Part shown: positions 2,986-7,285 of the stretch, in pieces
Layout: every line of letters starts with the position of its first letter
Position numbering within the stretch: position 1 is the first letter of the stretch
Source of the DNA: a virus
Lineage: Duplodnaviria > Heunggongvirae > Uroviricota > Caudoviricetes
Reading direction: 5' to 3' (one strand)
DNA: 8,238 nt
Virus record (IMG/VR): IMGVR_UViG_2548876694_000021
Notes under the pieces: model-generated
Seen by the model: the letters and a program-made list of their open reading frames with translations, nothing else
Database searches by the model: none
What the model was told of the DNA's origin: nothing
Made by a program: the position numbers and the translations under genes

Positions 2986-3726
2986 TCACATACCCTGACG
3001 TCCAACGTTTGACCGCCAGCTATCCCAGTTAAACGTCACCCATCGACCACCGTTCATGGTCATGCGGTCCATAATCCTCTCACCAAGAAGTGTACTCATT
3101 GCGGCATGATTCAGGTTTGTTAACATCCCGACACTGCACAGTGATGCTGTCCGGCGATCAATTATCTGGTGTAATACCACCTGCTCGTTTTTCGTCTCCC
3201 GCTGAACGCCTATTTCATCCAGGACCAGCAAATCAACACTGCAAAGCTCCTGTAAAAATTTTTCCCCGGATTTGCCGTTGTCGTAGCTGTCATGCAACAC
3301 GCTCATGACATCAGACACGGTGACGATAATCACGCTGCGCCCCTTCGCCATCAGCCGGTTACCCATCGCCGCTGCAAGGTGATTTTTCCCGGTGCCGGTT
3401 TTACCGCTGAACACAAAATTCGTGCACCCGGTCATCAGTTCGTCAGCTATGGATTTGGCCTGGCTCAGCGCGTATTTTTGCCCGTCGTTCTGCACCTGAT
3501 AATTCGCAAACGAGCATTTGCTGTGCAGAGGCTGGATGCCCGAACGATTCAGGATTTTTTCCACCCGCAACTGGTGATTCTGGCGGTTAATCTCCTCGCT
3601 GCGTTTTCGTCCTTCAGCAAGTTGCCATTCCCGCCACTCCTCCACCGTCCGGTACGGTGGAACCGACGCCTGTGGTGCAAGTCTGCGAATACGTTCAAGA
3701 ACCCCGGCTGCCGCAATGTTTTTCAT
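2986..3726 (-). CDS. DnaC-like AAA+ helicase loader (IstB-like ATPase)
   Basis: Walker A (FVFSGKTGTGKNHLAAAMG) and Walker B (DLLVLDEIG) motifs. The start ATG overlaps the stop of the upstream initiator gene (ATGA at 3723-3726), indicating translational coupling. Confidence 0.88.
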   Translation of the reverse strand: MKNIAAAGVLERIRRLAPQASVPPYRTVEEWREWQLAEGRKRSEEINRQNHQLRVEKILNRSGIQPLHSKCSFANYQVQNDGQKYALSQAKSIADELMTGCTNFVFSGKTGTGKNHLAAAMGNRLMAKGRSVIIVTVSDVMSVLHDSYDNGKSGEKFLQELCSVDLLVLDEIGVQRETKNEQVVLHQIIDRRTASLCSVGMLTNLNHAAMSTLLGERIMDRMTMNGGRWVTFNWDSWRSNVGRQGM

Positions 3727-4847
3727 GCCACATCACCCCTGAATCCCGGCGGAATTTCGGTATCCGGTTCAGAAATATGATTCACACAACGCTGGTTGTT
3801 CGTGCCGCTTACCGGGAGCAACCAGGGGTTTTCAAAATTCCGGTCCGGCCCAAAAAACGTCGTCGCTCGCTGAACAAATTCCGTTCCCGCTTTCCCGGTC
3901 GCCGCCAGGTATCTCGCGTAACGCCTCACACCATCCAGCATGGTCTCTGGTGGCACCCCCTCGCGCAATCTGGCCTTCCAGGCACTGAAAGCGGATTTCT
4001 TCGGGTTTGCCCCAGCACGCAACGGGTATTCCCGCCAGACCTGTTCGAACACATCCGGATAATCCACTCGTCCCACAGACTGCCCGGTGCTTTCCGGGAC
4101 TACCCGATCGGCTTCCCGCTGAATGGCGGAATCGGCTTCAGGCTGCTGCAGTTGGTGTGATTGCTCCGACCCTGCGGTCATCACCTGCTGCACAGCGCCC
4201 GAATCGGCTTTCAGCGCATACGCTGAATCGGCTTCCGGTGTCGTGCCTGCTGGCTGACCAGGATTGACGGTCTGAACATCCCCTGCCTGGTTCGTGGTGT
4301 TTTTTTTGCCATGAACCATAGTGTTTTTGTCCTGTTCCTGTTCTTTCTCCTGCTCCTGTTCCTGTTCTTGGCTTCGAAGCCCCTTAAAAGCCCCTTCGAA
4401 GCCCCTTACCGAATTTCGGCTATTATTCCGCCTCACATCCAGATGGAAATCCGTTTTATATCTGTCGTAAAACACTGACAGAAAAGCGTTTTCAGGTAAT
4501 GATGCATACTCATTCCTGACACCTGCACAACGGTTATCGCCAGGCTTCAACGTTTCCCCAACCTGCCAGGCTGCCATTTCATGGACCCAGACCATCTCTG
4601 CATCATGGTCATAGCTACAAAAACCAGCTTCAACAGCCCTTTTAAGCCCCTTTGAAGCCCCTTCCAGACCAAGCCCGGTTTCATGAGCAAGGTATAAAAC
4701 TGGCAGGTAATACAAACCCAGCATATTTGCGTGAGGGGATGTCATCAGGTAAAAAGCAACAACTTGCGCTTCTGCACCCGCCTTTCTAAGTTCTCTCCCC
4801 GTTTCTCCCAGCCAGAATCGCGGAGAAACTTTTGCGTAATCACGCAT
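3723..4847 (-). CDS. Phage replication initiator / replisome organiser with a DnaT-like C-terminal domain
   Basis: The ORF extends to 4958, but the ATG at 4847 (MRDYAKVSPRFWLGE...) has GAGGTAG upstream and is the likelier start. The C-terminus ...VNHISEPDTEIPPGFRG resembles the C-terminus of primosomal protein DnaT as I recall it. There is a central QEQEQEQEKEQEQ linker. Iteron-like repeats lie inside the gene. Confidence 0.8.
   Translation of the reverse strand: MRDYAKVSPRFWLGETGRELRKAGAEAQVVAFYLMTSPHANMLGLYYLPVLYLAHETGLGLEGASKGLKRAVEAGFCSYDHDAEMVWVHEMAAWQVGETLKPGDNRCAGVRNEYASLPENAFLSVFYDRYKTDFHLDVRRNNSRNSVRGFEGAFKGLRSQEQEQEQEKEQEQDKNTMVHGKKNTTNQAGDVQTVNPGQPAGTTPEADSAYALKADSGAVQQVMTAGSEQSHQLQQPEADSAIQREADRVVPESTGQSVGRVDYPDVFEQVWREYPLRAGANPKKSAFSAWKARLREGVPPETMLDGVRRYARYLAATGKAGTEFVQRATTFFGPDRNFENPWLLPVSGTNNQRCVNHISEPDTEIPPGFRGDVA
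4331..4366. repeat. Imperfect hexanucleotide tandem repeat (CCTGTT)n, encoding the Q/E-repeat linker of the initiator
   Basis: Read directly: cctgttcctgttctttctcctgctcctgttcctgtt. On the coding strand it gives QEQEQEQEKEQEQ. Confidence 0.7.
4375..4407. repeat. Iteron-like direct repeats, cluster A: three copies of AAGCCCCTT at about 11-12 bp spacing
   Basis: Copies at 4376-4384, 4387-4395 and 4399-4407. The spacing is close to one helical turn. They lie inside the initiator gene next to the linker. Confidence 0.5.
4635..4680. repeat. Iteron-like direct repeats, cluster B: two exact AAGCCCCTT copies plus flanking degenerate copies
   Basis: Exact copies at 4644-4652 and 4655-4663 (11 bp apart). 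Degenerate copies at 4635-4643 (agccctttt) and 4671-4680 (aagcccggtt). Confidence 0.45.
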
Positions 4848-4925
4848 GGCTACCTCATCTGGTGCCGAACCTTCCTCCGGATATAATCTGTGGTTCCCAA
4901 TCGACAGAACCAGAGGAGGTTCGAC

Positions 4926-5381
4926 ATGTATTTTTTGAAAAGCCTTTATCAGGCTCATGTATTAAATGTTGCAGCAACAAACCGCTGGTGTAACAGCCCC
5001 GAAATGCTCCCGGATTACAGAGCCTGGCTGCGCGCCGAAACATACCTTCGTCTCGACATATTGATTAGCGAACTTCAAAAAGAGACTGCATCCATTCATA
5101 ACCTTCAGGGTATCGATGCTGTTCGCATTCTGGTATCGCGCCATAGTGCTCTCTCAATAATTGAAGTGCGTCATCTCTCTTTTTCTGAACTGATTTTCTT
5201 GCTTCAACCAGCTCTGGAATCAGCGAATATCCCACCGGAAGTGATCCAATACCCACCTCATGTTGACGAGCAGTTACAAGATGTGCCATACAACCAGCGT
5301 GCTGGATTGACTCCCTGCTCAGAGGCTGAATGGGATCACTCTCTGCTGAAGAAATACCAAGATTTGTATAATCCTCAATAA
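4926..5381 (+). CDS. Hypothetical protein (151 aa), antisense to the early operon; mutually exclusive with the minus-strand ORF 5065-5574
   Basis: AGGAGG at 4913-4918 sits 7 nt upstream of the ATG at 4926, inside an otherwise non-coding 217-nt gap of the minus-strand operon. Seven of the eight Arg codons I decoded by hand are CGT/CGC. No recognised domain. Confidence 0.42.
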   Translation: MYFLKSLYQAHVLNVAATNRWCNSPEMLPDYRAWLRAETYLRLDILISELQKETASIHNLQGIDAVRILVSRHSALSIIEVRHLSFSELIFLLQPALESANIPPEVIQYPPHVDEQLQDVPYNQRAGLTPCSEAEWDHSLLKKYQDLYNPQ

Positions 5382-5587: not shown

Positions 5588-6013
5588 TTAATGCACAGCC
5601 AGAGTGTTTCCTGCCGGGCCACCACGATTCATCTGATCGAACAGAACGATCGCTGATGCAACGAAATCATCAATATCTTTCACCAGCCGTTCCTTCGTCT
5701 CTACCAACTCCCGAAAATAAGCGGAACTGTGGCTGCGCATTCGGGCCACCAGCGGAGGCGGCATCGCTTTTTCGATCGCTGGTAACAACGCCTGAATTTT
5801 TTTAACCGCATCAGGAGTGTCTTTCTCCACCCAGCGGAAAATTTTCTGAGTATTGCGAGCCATGGCTTCCGGATGGCTGTCGTCATACAGTTCCGGGAAC
5901 GTCATTCCCAGCTCGAAATACGCTTTGGTAATTTTCGCAGCCGGTACTTTTTCGCCGTCCGGATGCGCCCAGGCATTCATCGCCATGCGGATGTGTTCAT
6001 GCTTGATTTTCAT
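5588..6013 (-). CDS. YdaT-like protein (Rac-prophage YdaT family; proposed CII-type regulator)
   Basis: 141 aa starting MKIKHEHI and ending ...TLAVH, matching my recollection of YdaT-family proteins. GGAG lies 8 nt upstream. Its start overlaps the end of the Cro-like gene by 17 nt. Confidence 0.7.
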   Translation of the reverse strand: MKIKHEHIRMAMNAWAHPDGEKVPAAKITKAYFELGMTFPELYDDSHPEAMARNTQKIFRWVEKDTPDAVKKIQALLPAIEKAMPPPLVARMRSHSSAYFRELVETKERLVKDIDDFVASAIVLFDQMNRGGPAGNTLAVH

Positions 6014-6269
6014 GAATCAACTCCGGCGCATTTGATGTGTTAACCTTACATCCAACAGGTAAACCGTCGGTTGGGTTAGGATAAATATCTGGGCGGATTT
6101 CATGCGGGGTAACTTCCCACTTCATTAGTTGGCATAACGGAATTACCTGCTTTGGGGGAACGCCAAAGCTAAACCATTGCCAAACAGTCTGTTGAGCGAC
6201 CCCCATATAACGACCTATTTCAGCCTGAGTGTATTTCTGCCTAATTTTTTCGCGAGTGCTATCTAGCAT
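5997..6269 (-). CDS. Cro/YdaS-like HTH DNA-binding protein (first gene of the leftward early operon)
   Basis: GAGGAGG SD upstream of the ATG at 6269. HTH segment QAEIGRYMGVAQQTVWQW and a ...TPHEIRPDIYPNPTDGLP... motif typical of YdaS-like Cro proteins. It is divergent from the repressor gene. Confidence 0.8.
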   Translation of the reverse strand: MLDSTREKIRQKYTQAEIGRYMGVAQQTVWQWFSFGVPPKQVIPLCQLMKWEVTPHEIRPDIYPNPTDGLPVGCKVNTSNAPELIHENQA

Positions 6270-6377: not shown

Positions 6378-6779
6378 ATGATGAGCGCCCTAGAAGTATC
6401 TATGTACAGAATCAGCAAGCTTCTTCAGGAAACTGGATGGAGCCAGGCTGAGCTTGCCCGTAGAATTGGTGTGACACAACAAACTGTTCAACAATGGGTC
6501 AGCGGTAAGGCTACACCTAAAGCCTCAAGTTTGGATAAACTGGTTGAGGTTTCAGGGCATCCATTGCATTGGTTTTTATTGCCTCCTGAAGAGTGTGAGC
6601 AAATTTTCACCCCTGACACGATGAAAATTGGTCCTCGCCAACGCGAACTGCTCCAAGCTTTTAGTGCGTTTCCTGAGGAAGACCAAGAAAAAATGCTTCA
6701 AGAAATCAAAGACAAGAAAAAATCAATGGAAGAAACCATTGCTAGGTGGCTGGCGGCACAAAAAAGCCGCCGGGCGTGA
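6378..6779 (+). CDS. Prophage repressor, XRE/DicA-type HTH; PaaR-like first gene of a three-gene repressor-antitoxin-toxin operon
   Basis: HTH segment SQAELARRIGVTQQTVQQWVSGK. No LexA-type S24 peptidase domain. The C-terminal part (GPRQRELLQAFSAFPEEDQEKM) resembles DicA/RacR-type repressors as I recall them. It is divergent from the cro-like gene. Confidence 0.85.
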   Translation: MMSALEVSMYRISKLLQETGWSQAELARRIGVTQQTVQQWVSGKATPKASSLDKLVEVSGHPLHWFLLPPEECEQIFTPDTMKIGPRQRELLQAFSAFPEEDQEKMLQEIKDKKKSMEETIARWLAAQKSRRA

Positions 6780-6806: not shown

Positions 6807-6998
6807 ATGGGTACAGCCCTTTCTCCGATAGTTTCAGAATTCGAAACTACCGAACAAGAAAACAGTTACAACGAATGGTTGCGCACTAAAGTAACGTCAA
6901 GCCTTGCAGACACTCGCCCCGCAATTCCACATGACGAGGTAATGGCTGAAATGGAAAATCTTATTGCTCAAATTGCTGTAACTAACAAGAGCGAGTAA
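6807..6998 (+). CDS. paaA: Type II antitoxin partner of ParE (PaaA-like, 63 aa)
   Basis: GAGGAG lies 7 nt upstream of the ATG. Small acidic protein (…SEFETTEQENSYNEWLRTKV…HDEVMAEMENLIAQI). Its stop overlaps the toxin start (TAATG at 6996-7000). It resembles PaaA2 of E. coli O157 prophages as I recall it. Confidence 0.72.
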   Translation: MGTALSPIVSEFETTEQENSYNEWLRTKVTSSLADTRPAIPHDEVMAEMENLIAQIAVTNKSE

Positions 6999-7285
6999 TG
7001 TTACCCATTTTATGGCTACCGTCTGCTCGCGATGATTTGCGCCAGATCATAACTTACATCGCCAAGGAGAACCCACCGGCAGCACGTAGACTAAAAATAC
7101 GCATTGAAACATCGGTATTACCTCTATCTGAGCATCCGTACTTATATCCACCAAGCGAACGGGTTTCTGGATTGAGAGAGATCGTGACCCACCCTAACTA
7201 CATAATCCTGTACAGAGTAGCTGCTTCAAGCATTGAGATTGTAAGCGTGACACATTCTCGGCGACAATTTCCCTTCTCTATCTGA
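6998..7285 (+). CDS. parE: ParE/RelE-superfamily type II toxin (ParE-like, 95 aa)
   Basis: The MLPILWLPSARDDLRQI...EHPYLYPPSERVSGLREIVTHPNYIILYRVAASSIEIVSVTHSRRQF pattern is characteristic of ParE toxins. It is translationally coupled to the antitoxin gene. Confidence 0.85.
   Translation: MLPILWLPSARDDLRQIITYIAKENPPAARRLKIRIETSVLPLSEHPYLYPPSERVSGLREIVTHPNYIILYRVAASSIEIVSVTHSRRQFPFSI

Follow-up and report, generated by a model that had tools for sequence, protein, structure and literature searches.

The five AAGCCCCTT repeats found in the window (the whole stretch of 8,238 nucleotides of phage DNA that was analysed) are probably iterons for the winged-helix N-terminal domain encoded by the gene in which they lie and, together with the tract encoding the adjoining linker, probably form the replication origin of a prophage. 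The two repeat clusters are almost certainly protein-binding sites, a judgement drawn from sequence comparison, because the 9-mers are retained letter for letter in many phyla despite change in the protein; that the initiator binds them and that replication fires there is what we infer. An origin inside the initiator gene had been proposed in an earlier note on this DNA, and repeat conservation, constrained synonymous sites and the inversion of one cluster argue in its favor. By analogy, the arrangement is best read as an iteron-type origin built on the logic of lambda O and pSK41 RepA.

All five exact copies are on the + strand and inside one gene (Table 1), with a start-to-start spacing of exactly 11 bp in either cluster and a start-to-start distance of 267 bp between the clusters, which confirms the three-plus-two arrangement previously described. 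Under a first-order Markov model of the window, 0.085 exact copies were expected in both orientations (Poisson P(≥5) = 3.5e-8), while the count allowing one mismatch was not significant (5 found vs 2.1 expected); as all five matches are exact and clustered, the exact-match statistic is the relevant one. Cluster A covers codons E62 G63 A64 / K66 G67 L68, predicted from the structural model to be the first half of the recognition helix (aa 60–73), and the codons of its degenerate third unit (69–70, CAA AGG) also have reduced synonymous variation in homologues. Cluster B uses all three frames, encodes the peptide RGFEGAFKGL, and is positioned directly before the inter-domain linker. The repeated peptides GLEGASKGLK and GFEGAFKGLR noted earlier are indeed encoded by the minus-strand open reading frame. 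A half-unit in phase with cluster B is conserved regardless of the orientation of that cluster, and in an anchored alignment of 40 loci the AGCCAAGA columns were near-invariant and the first Q codon was mostly CAA, high-GC hosts included.

Table 1. Coordinates of the putative origin features and associated genes in the window.
Feature	Position	Strand	Description
DnaC/IstB-like AAA+ helicase loader	2986..3726	-	Pfam IstB_IS21 3.5e-19, Bac_DnaA 3e-8
Replication initiator gene	3723..4847	-	374 aa; RefSeq WP_072097015.1, 'DNA-binding protein'
T-run and inverted repeat with 12-bp stem	4288..4322		Adjoins linker tract; non-conserved part of gene
(CAR GAR)n hexanucleotide-repeat tract	4323..4370	-	Encodes QEQEQEQEKEQEQDKN linker; coding strand purine-rich
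Half-unit in 11-bp phase with cluster B	4366..4374	+	Coding strand AAGCCAAGA, codons S159 Q160 E161
Putative iteron cluster B	4377..4407	+	Three exact AAGCCCCTT units (4377-4385, 4388-4396, 4399-4407), 11 bp apart
N-terminal winged-helix domain, aa 1-135	4443..4847	-	Coding region
Degenerate third unit of cluster A	4634..4642	+	CAGCCCTTT, 2 mismatches, 10 bp from next unit
Putative iteron cluster A	4644..4663	+	Two exact AAGCCCCTT units (4644-4652, 4655-4663), 11 bp apart; coding strand AAGGGGCTT

The gene belongs to an E. coli O121/O157-type prophage, and its start at 4847, as annotated in RefSeq, agrees with the MRDY... start of homologues. In the protein, a (QE)n linker connects a putative origin-binding domain at the N terminus to a 'replication initiation protein' domain at the C terminus. 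The N-terminal part was assigned to PHROG 25210/1701 and the C-terminal part to PHROG 3729 (E 1e-133, 'replication initiation protein'), with 'DnaD-like helicase loader' or 'replisome organizer' as further PHROG labels on the family. Neither the whole protein nor the N-domain matched Pfam, even at E ≤ 10 (Phage_rep_O, Phage_rep_org_N, and RepA_N were all absent), no NCBIfam family was found for the N-domain, and a PDB sequence search with the family profile returned no match. A Foldseek search with a first, low-confidence model of the N-domain found nothing significant; the N-domain was then modelled confidently as a winged helix (pLDDT 94) with the topology H1-S1-H2-H3-S2-S3 and structural matches to known winged-helix DNA binders. 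In a complete-looking lambdoid prophage with the gene order cI-like, cro/YdaS, cII/YdaT, initiator, and DnaC-like loader, the gene occupies the lambda O position of the replication module, and the start of the loader, directly downstream, overlaps the initiator stop by 4 nt. This position, the adjacent loader, the winged-helix fold, and the PHROG 3729 domain bear out the identification of the gene as an initiator. The C-terminal half (3736–4327) is 96% identical to otherwise unrelated phages that lack the N-terminal half, and across the family a conserved unit of N-domain, iterons, and (QE)n linker is joined to unrelated C-domains. What comes next is, depending on the member, a gene for a DnaC-like loader, for a DnaB-like helicase, for a Toprim primase-helicase, or for an unknown partner.

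Comparison of the repeats across homologous genes had been suggested as a check in the earlier note, and in a set of 44 protein-selected genes, ranging from Enterobacteriaceae to Myxococcota, almost every member carried pairs of the 9-mer at the same two positions. Cluster A had at least two copies, at gene positions +184/+195, in 40 of the 44 homologues and cluster B at least two in 43, and neighbouring copies in a cluster were nearly always spaced at 11 bp; when all fetched loci were pooled, this spacing occurred in 245 of 255 cases, a count that includes 120 viral loci selected with the 11-bp pattern. Cluster B was inverted in 33 of the 44 loci, direct in six (enterics, including the window), and mixed in four. 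Inversion changes the encoded GASKGL to APSKPL, yet the exact 9-mer and the 11-bp phase are retained. Nearly all homologues have a dipeptide-repeat tract after cluster B, as do the distant low-GC families, and the gap from the last iteron to the S-Q tract of the S-Q-(EQ)n linker was exactly 3 nt in 32 of 43 loci. The six iteron codons of cluster A had the six lowest synonymous entropies among 78 conserved codons (44–45 sequences, Mann-Whitney p = 2.6e-5), and the top codon was used in 94% of cases at iteron codons compared to 57% at other conserved codons (45 sequences, GC3 0.26 to 0.89). As the units are read in three frames, the synonymous sites are frozen, and the cluster can be inverted in place with the 9-mer retained, alignment of these genes shows selection acting on the iteron DNA and not on the peptide.

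The repeats co-occur specifically with the N-domain, a DNA-binding fold. Among 80 viral loci that the DNA motif alone had picked out and that carry a gene for a recognisable homologue, 324 of the 327 exact copies fell between −150 and +700 relative to the start of that gene, and none of the exact copies in two complete phage genomes of 45 and 44 kb (5 and 3 copies) fell outside the initiator gene and the DNA just upstream of it. In Acinetobacter phages, extra copies occur in non-coding DNA upstream of the initiator gene. Initiator families so divergent that BLAST no longer links them also carry the 9-mer. When the profile of the window's family was compared directly with those of these low-GC families, the alignment was co-linear, but with a probability of 3.8% (E 0.011), and the proposed homology rests on transitive PHROG matches. 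One further locus (L132), with ~32 scattered, non-coding copies beside a terminase gene, was set aside, as these look like unrelated hairpin-forming repeats.

Two general features of an iteron-type theta origin are present: short, helically phased copies within the gene of the candidate initiator, conserved together with the N-domain and under selection as DNA. In the proposed mechanism, initiator molecules would bind the 9-bp units and, with the 11-bp spacing close to one helical turn, would line up on one face of the DNA. Initiator oligomers may bridge the two arrays, and strain from the bound arrays might open nearby DNA. The leading candidate for such opening is the hexamer-repeat tract, with its purine/pyrimidine asymmetry, together with the T-run, both next to cluster B (4288–4370). 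Gene order and domain families suggest that the variable C-terminal domain would then pass to the downstream DnaC-like loader and through it to host DnaB.

The hexanucleotide-repeat tract is a candidate flexible linker and/or unwinding region, and the T-run with its inverted repeat a candidate part of the unwinding element. On the + strand, 73% of positions 4288–4376 are pyrimidine, the AT skew at the linker tract reaches −0.72 to −0.81, and the most AT-rich 30-mer of the gene (4298–4327, GC 0.30) lies within the T-run/inverted-repeat region. The visibly AT-richer DNA between the clusters reported in the earlier note is marginal: the spacer (4408–4643) has a GC of 0.462, which is below the mean of the gene (0.533) and about equal to the mean of the window (0.46), and 4410–4530 alone is lower (0.41). 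Scans for promoters and terminators were at chance level.

Several observations count against an origin at this site. A conserved, strongly AT-rich block was sought across 42 loci and none was found, with the averaged GC dipping by 0.04–0.08, and scans of 4150–4960 for DnaA boxes, IHF sites, and GATC clusters found none. Codon usage in the QE tract is mixed across homologues, so the tract is bound only to purine richness, which any Q or E codon provides, and not to one DNA sequence. Compared to classical iterons, the AAGCCCCTT units are short (9 bp) and few (2–3 per cluster). No small plasmid carrying the module as its sole replicon was found, the records recovered being only prophage-bearing or mislabelled. 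In two divergent homologues (L046 and L042) the predicted recognition-helix residues have changed while the cluster B 9-mer has not.

Among known systems, lambda offers a close parallel in layout. As in lambda O, where ori-lambda is in the middle of the gene, and in the Stx phages 933W and P27, repeated sites are inside the initiator gene at the boundary of the N- and C-domains, and the gene follows cro/cII and precedes a helicase-loader gene in a lambdoid early-right operon (PMC7466680). The likeness to lambdoid initiators drawn in the earlier note stands for the placement of repeats within the initiator's own gene near the inter-domain linker and does not extend to the protein, which has no sequence relationship to Phage_rep_O; as it is not a lambda O homologue, the comparison is an analogy of design and not of family membership. 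Lambda iterons are about 19 bp. The window has 9-bp units with an 11-bp period in two clusters of 2–3, 267 bp apart, and weak GC dips, whereas lambda has one array of 4–6 longer iterons followed by a pronounced AT-rich tract (PMC7466680). The loader also differs, with a DnaC/IstB-type AAA+ protein in place of lambda P.

In the staphylococcal plasmid pSK41, the N-domain of Rep (RepA_N) binds 'Rep boxes' central in its own gene, the origin DNA encodes a dispensable linker, and it is through the C-terminal domain that Rep makes contact with a replication protein of the host (PMC5703833). The window protein shares this plan, with sites at a low-complexity linker between a conserved N-domain and a variable C-domain, though by sequence (Pfam and the family-profile search of PDB) it has no RepA_N domain. 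Replisome organisers (SPP1 G38P/oriL, lactococcal TP901-1 and Tuc2009) likewise bind repeats in their own coding sequence and then recruit a helicase loader or helicase, but the window protein lacks Phage_rep_org_N, and the repeat sequence and host range differ. The Eru4 module of Stx phages (Shigella phage 75/02 Stx, POCJ13) is a direct homologue, with N-domain DNA 74.6% identical and the same iterons, and has an initiator-like gene followed by an AAA+ 'helicase/DnaC' gene downstream of cI/cro (PMC8951638). Unlike the window, cluster B of 75/02 Stx is inverted and has two units. The Eru4 proteins have been described as of unknown function, with no origin named (PMC8951638); no discussion of origins was found in the Eru literature, and a full-text literature search for the 9-mer in an iteron or phage context turned up nothing but primers and unrelated matches. 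YdaU of the Rac prophage was considered as a link to oriJ and rejected, as it shares only the C-terminal IPPGFRG tail, with the N-domain and iterons absent.

It is unlikely that the initiator or another phage protein binds the sites as an autoregulatory roadblock or copy-control (handcuffing) element while the true origin is elsewhere. Selection has clearly acted on the sites as double-stranded DNA motifs, no convincing AT-rich element adjoins them, and in plasmids such as P1 or pSK639 the iterons serve in autoregulation as well (PMC5703833). However, they are within a coding region and not at a promoter, the N-domain/linker junction is where the origin is found in lambda and pSK41 (PMC7466680, PMC5703833), and the two complete phage genomes have no other motif cluster; regulation and origin function are, moreover, not mutually exclusive.

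Less probable still is that the repeats are junctions for recombinational exchange of initiator domains, or sites for a host factor, and are not bound by the initiator. Cluster A is in the middle of a conserved domain, away from any junction, even though cluster B and the (QE)n tract fall exactly at the mosaic breakpoint, where the shared 3736–4327 region meets an N-terminal half that is not shared. Both the strict 11-bp phase and the inversion in place are hallmarks of sites bound by protein and not of recombination homology. A universal host factor could explain the same 9-mer in BLAST-undetectable initiator families, but the N-domain is the motif's only constant partner across loci, as the neighbouring genes differ, and to our knowledge no motif-binding factor is common to Proteobacteria, Myxococcota, Planctomycetes, and the hosts of low-GC phages.

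Pairing of RNA or single-stranded DNA, with cluster A and the inverted cluster B forming a long-range stem, is very improbable: the clusters are reverse complements over ~20 nt in most homologues, but in the window and other enterobacterial members they run in the same direction and are unable to pair, with the 9-mers equally conserved, and mixed arrangements occur as well. That the repeat is a by-product of a required peptide motif, G-x-E-G-A-x-K-G-L, has scarcely any likelihood left and is refuted for practical purposes by the comparative data, for although both window clusters encode similar peptides and cluster A is within a structured, conserved helix, the units fall in three different reading frames, only the iteron codons have frozen synonymous sites, the 33 inverted loci encode APSKPL, and the Acinetobacter phages have further non-coding copies upstream of the gene.

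Tentatively, the 9-bp unit with 11-bp phase and the hexanucleotide-repeat linker may be the origin signature shared by a very large and ancient superfamily of phage initiators, though this is doubtful. Its reach might then extend from Proteobacteria, Myxococcota, and Planctomycetes to the BLAST-undetectable initiators of low-GC phages (about 31% GC), and the DNA site would have stayed fixed while the protein diverged. Since cluster A is in the codons of the predicted DNA-reading helix, site and reader may hold each other fixed; the invariance of the site could instead reflect a reader other than the initiator.

If the repeats do function as iterons, the gene is a clean natural case of overlapping protein and DNA codes, with binding sites inverted in place within a coding region, and the pattern (AAGGGGCTT-NN)2-3 with an adjoining dipeptide-repeat linker would be a simple signature with which to annotate origins in thousands of prophages. 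The initiator family, which has neither a Pfam model nor a described origin, includes that of the Eru4 phages, and a defined origin would offer a concrete target for studying or blocking the replication of Stx prophages. Replication presumably raises toxin-gene dosage after induction. The family is common. It supplies the replication module of Shiga-toxin phages of the Eru4 class (PMC8951638). Among 5,426 complete E. coli genomes, 477 have the N-domain region, most of them O157:H7 and other STEC, and the family is also found in Klebsiella, Acinetobacter, Ralstonia, and numerous prophages from the environment.

The window contains five exact copies of the unit AAGCCCCTT; every one is on the + strand and inside the initiator gene. 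They form two clusters (A and B) 267 bp apart, with a spacing of exactly 11 bp within each. Under a first-order Markov model, 0.085 exact copies would be expected (P(≥5) = 3.5e-8). An earlier note had described two clusters of 11-bp-spaced repeats in the initiator gene, encoding the peptides GLEGASKGLK and GFEGAFKGLR, and both the arrangement and the peptides were recovered. The AT-richer DNA that it placed between the clusters is borne out only weakly: the interval 4408–4643 taken whole (GC, 0.462) equals the window average, and only 4410–4530 is lower (GC, 0.41).

Repeat units and genes located in the window
Feature	Coordinates	Strand	Remarks
AAGCCCCTT units, cluster B (starts)	4377, 4388, 4399	+	
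AAGCCCCTT units, cluster A (starts)	4644, 4655	+	
Degenerate unit	4634–4642		
DnaC/IstB-like AAA+ protein	2986–3726	-	Start overlaps initiator stop
Initiator gene	3723–4847	-	374 aa; RefSeq 'DNA-binding protein'
ECs1072-family gene	4926–5381	+	Orientation opposite
YdaT-family gene	5588–6013	-	cII position
cro/YdaS-like gene	5997–6269	-	
cI-like HTH repressor	6378–6779	+	
DUF1627 protein			Also among window genes

Homologous initiator genes were gathered by protein similarity alone, without use of the DNA motif, from five phage records (Shigella, Klebsiella, Acinetobacter, Escherichia, and Ralstonia phages) and 41 genome loci (Enterobacteriaceae, Acinetobacter, many Burkholderiales, Xanthomonadales, Neisseriaceae, Myxococcota, a planctomycete, a spirochaete bin, and Gemmatimonas). 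Nearly all homologues carry two units at +184/+195 of the gene and two or three at about +428 to +462, with at least two units in cluster A in 40 and in cluster B in 43 of the 44 loci compared.

Four independent observations from these sequences show that what is conserved is the DNA sequence itself. Within cluster B, one 9-mer is read in three frames (A-AGG-GGC-TT, AA-GGG-GCT-T, and AAG-GGG-CTT), since 11 is not divisible by 3. In a codon alignment of the N-terminal domain (45 sequences; third-position GC, 0.26 to 0.89), six iteron codons are near-fixed (GAA 39/40, GGG 39/41, GCT 37/40, AAG 40/40, GGG 37/40, CTT 39/44) and have the six lowest normalised synonymous entropies among 78 conserved codons (Mann-Whitney p = 2.6e-5), with a top-codon fraction of 0.94 compared to 0.57 for the other conserved codons; invariant neighbouring residues (e.g., T57, G58, L59, A74) are encoded freely by four or five different codons. 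In 33 of the 44 loci, cluster B is found inverted in place: the coding strand there reads AAGCCCCTT and the peptide is APSKPL instead of GASKGL, with no change to the exact 9-mer, to its 11-bp phase or to its distance from the linker; the direct cluster B of the window is a minority, enterobacterial arrangement. Acinetobacter phages possess an extra unit pair in non-coding DNA directly upstream of the start codon. A role at the RNA level was excluded because the motif is strand-independent, and so, for the window, was a role through base pairing between cluster A and cluster B in inverted form, because both clusters share one orientation.

Several loci fetched for comparison depart from the common layout. 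The extra (third) pair of Acinetobacter phage YMC/09/02/B1251 (L005 2037–2056 / L050 5611–5630) is inverted relative to cluster A, for an arrangement of R R, start, F F, then R R R, and the deposited initiator start of this phage is too far downstream (5916 instead of ~5647). Two contigs from one Burkholderiales MAG hold expanded arrays, with five tandem direct units and an F-R-R-R group 1.2–1.5 kb upstream of the initiator gene in L040 and five inverted units in L049. In Labilithrix luteola (L046), cluster A is missing and five to six units are present.

The motif is largely specific to the initiator gene. All exact copies in two complete phage genomes, those of Acinetobacter phage YMC/09/02/B1251 (45 kb; 5/5) and Escherichia phage Fraca (44 kb; 3/3), are at the initiator gene. 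A reverse test, in which IMG/VR was scanned for AAGGGGCTTNNAAGGGGCTT independently of any protein, matched at least 120 loci; among the matches listed, 80 of 120 encode a BLAST-detectable N-domain homologue, and 324 of the 327 exact copies in those 80 fall between −150 and +700 of the gene start. One viral locus, L132 (2780–6600; IMGVR_UViG_3300028920_002952), contains ~32 exact 9-mers in both orientations, scattered over a mostly non-coding stretch of ~4 kb next to a terminase gene; some of them form AAGGGGCTT-AT-AAGCCCCTT hairpins. As an initiator homologue is absent nearby, these probably belong to an unrelated repeat family.

Among the matches listed, the remaining 40 viral loci, in which BLAST detects no N-domain, are mostly low-GC (~0.31) phages; their AAGGGGCTT pairs, again spaced by 11 bp, lie within other initiator-like ORFs, 210–270 aa long (IMG/VR loci L055, L057-L060, L063, L067, L070, L071, L075, L089, L091, L092, L097, L101, L102, L110, L113, L118, L125, L126, L128, L129, L131, L136, L141, L149, L150, L167, L170, L172). 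One family reads 'MAKRFTDTEKWKKPFIRGLQGAYKLLW ... KPLTSPLQGAKDKDKDKD' and a second '...IEGAxKGLxRGLI ... IEGASKGLxSPxGKGIGNG'. Both have two clusters 180–300 bp apart, the second followed by a dipeptide (hexanucleotide) repeat linker, and show orientation flips (e.g., RGLQGAY vs RSLKAPY). Across the listed loci the linker is (DK)n, (DM)n, (GK/GI/GN)n or (SN)n. The second family matches the same PHROGs as the window's N-domain, and direct profile-profile comparison of the window's family with the low-GC families was co-linear but statistically weak. Should they be true relatives, recognisable protein similarity would have been lost while the DNA site persisted.

The N-terminal 135 residues of the initiator had no sequence relative in Pfam, NCBIfam or PDB and belong to PHROG 25210/1701, labelled 'DnaD-like helicase loader'. 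With a shallow alignment, AlphaFold gave a poor initial model (pLDDT 60), while the model with diverse homologues added (pLDDT 94.1, pTM 0.88) has a predicted topology (H25-36, S45-47, H50-57, H60-73, S77-80, S85-88) that is clearly a winged helix. The assignment is to a generic winged helix only, because the plasmid initiator RepA (4pta), the first match for the poor model, was absent from the top 60 of the good model. By its position in the model, helix 60-73 is the predicted recognition helix, and cluster A covers its codons 62–68. This helix cannot be the whole story of specificity, because homologues from Labilithrix and Neisseriaceae in which its residues are altered and cluster A is lost keep the 9-mer in cluster B.

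A half-unit AAGCCAAGA (codons S-Q-E), in 11-bp phase, always follows cluster B and leads into a (QE)n tract, past which the proteins are unrelated. The C-terminal half in the window (3736–4327) matches PHROG 3729 ('replication initiation protein') and has 95–96% identity to Escherichia phages Tritos, Evi, and vB_EcoS-689R5, which lack the window's N-domain; it is a separate mosaic module with its breakpoint at the (QE)n tract beside cluster B. The gene directly downstream varies. In the window, as in the Shigella, Klebsiella, and Acinetobacter phages, it encodes a DnaC/IstB-like loader; Fraca has a Toprim primase-helicase at this place, Caballeronia and Cupriavidus have a DnaB-like helicase, and others a protein of unknown function. 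The module follows the design of lambda O, in which a conserved N-domain that binds the origin is joined through a linker to a C-domain fitted to the helicase system. The C-terminal tail RCVNHISEPDTEIPPGFRG (3723–3790), shared with Rac YdaU of E. coli K-12 (L052 3120–3977) and weakly similar to the DnaT C-terminus, is probably the contact for the DnaC-like loader. The ydaU gene has five mid-gene copies of a AGATGTTCAA-type repeat, unrelated to the 9-mer and possibly its own iterons.

In the proposed mechanism, the units would be binding sites for the N-domain; at one unit per helical turn, the bound proteins would line up along a single face of the helix. Protein contacts may link the two arrays, the DNA would then open close by, and the DnaC-like loader, together with host DnaB, would be recruited by the C-domain. 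The proposal is weakest on the unwinding site. No strongly AT-rich block was found near the clusters or across the loci compared, and no DnaA box, IHF site or GATC cluster in the region around the clusters. The best candidate is 4288–4370, adjoining cluster B (73% pyrimidine on the + strand; AT skew to −0.81; GC, 0.30 at 4298–4327); in the QE tract codon usage is mixed, and purine richness and repeat character are conserved rather than one sequence. Directly after the linker tract, on the strand antisense to the initiator gene, is an inverted repeat with a 12-bp stem and a T-run (4288–4318), which scored as terminator-like. In position it recalls the palindrome beside the AT-rich tract of ori-lambda, but it is in a non-conserved part of the gene.

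Overall, the repeats are very probably selected double-stranded DNA sites tied to the initiator and quite likely its binding sites; that they constitute a replication origin is somewhat less assured, though still probable, and this reading of the earlier note is supported as far as sequence analysis reaches. In lambda and lambdoid Stx phages the origin (iterons and an AT-rich tract) is mid-O (PMC7466680), and the four Rep boxes bound by pSK41 Rep lie in the centre of its gene, in DNA that encodes a dispensable linker (PMC5703833). The window's putative origin has in common with both the logic of an origin inside the initiator gene, but falls outside both families in sequence-membership tests and differs in unit length, phasing, two-cluster split, and helicase partner. 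A direct relative of the window's module is the Eru4 replication module of Stx phages (Shigella phage 75/02 Stx), whose proteins are described as of unknown function with no origin named (PMC8951638). The motif had no relevant match in the full-text literature covered, which omits most papers from subscription journals. No origin is known to have been described for this initiator family, which is common in STEC and other pathogens, and the evidence for overlapping codes is unusually clean.

Of the window, 8,166/8,238 bases have 100% identity to a lambdoid prophage of E. coli O121:H19 with the usual order of integrase, exonuclease, dicB, immunity region, replication region, Q antiterminator, lysis genes, and terminase. 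An initiator start at 4958 (long ORF) was rejected, as RefSeq and all homologues start at MRDY (4847). The ECs1072-family gene, of unknown function, sits between the YdaT and initiator genes, a place where Shigella and Klebsiella relatives have no such gene. Given its opposite orientation, either transcription of the rightward operon would have to run through an antisense gene, or the initiator is transcribed from a promoter of its own, in the AT-rich 4848–4950. The immunity region also carries a RelB/RelE-type toxin-antitoxin pair (6807–7285, +), located directly after the cI-like repressor gene. In the O157:H7 PV15-279 prophage version (L001 1–2121), a DUF977 gene downstream of the replication module is truncated by an IS66-family element (ISEc8), and the initiator differs from the window's in its C-terminal half, with the N-domain and all five iterons 100% identical.
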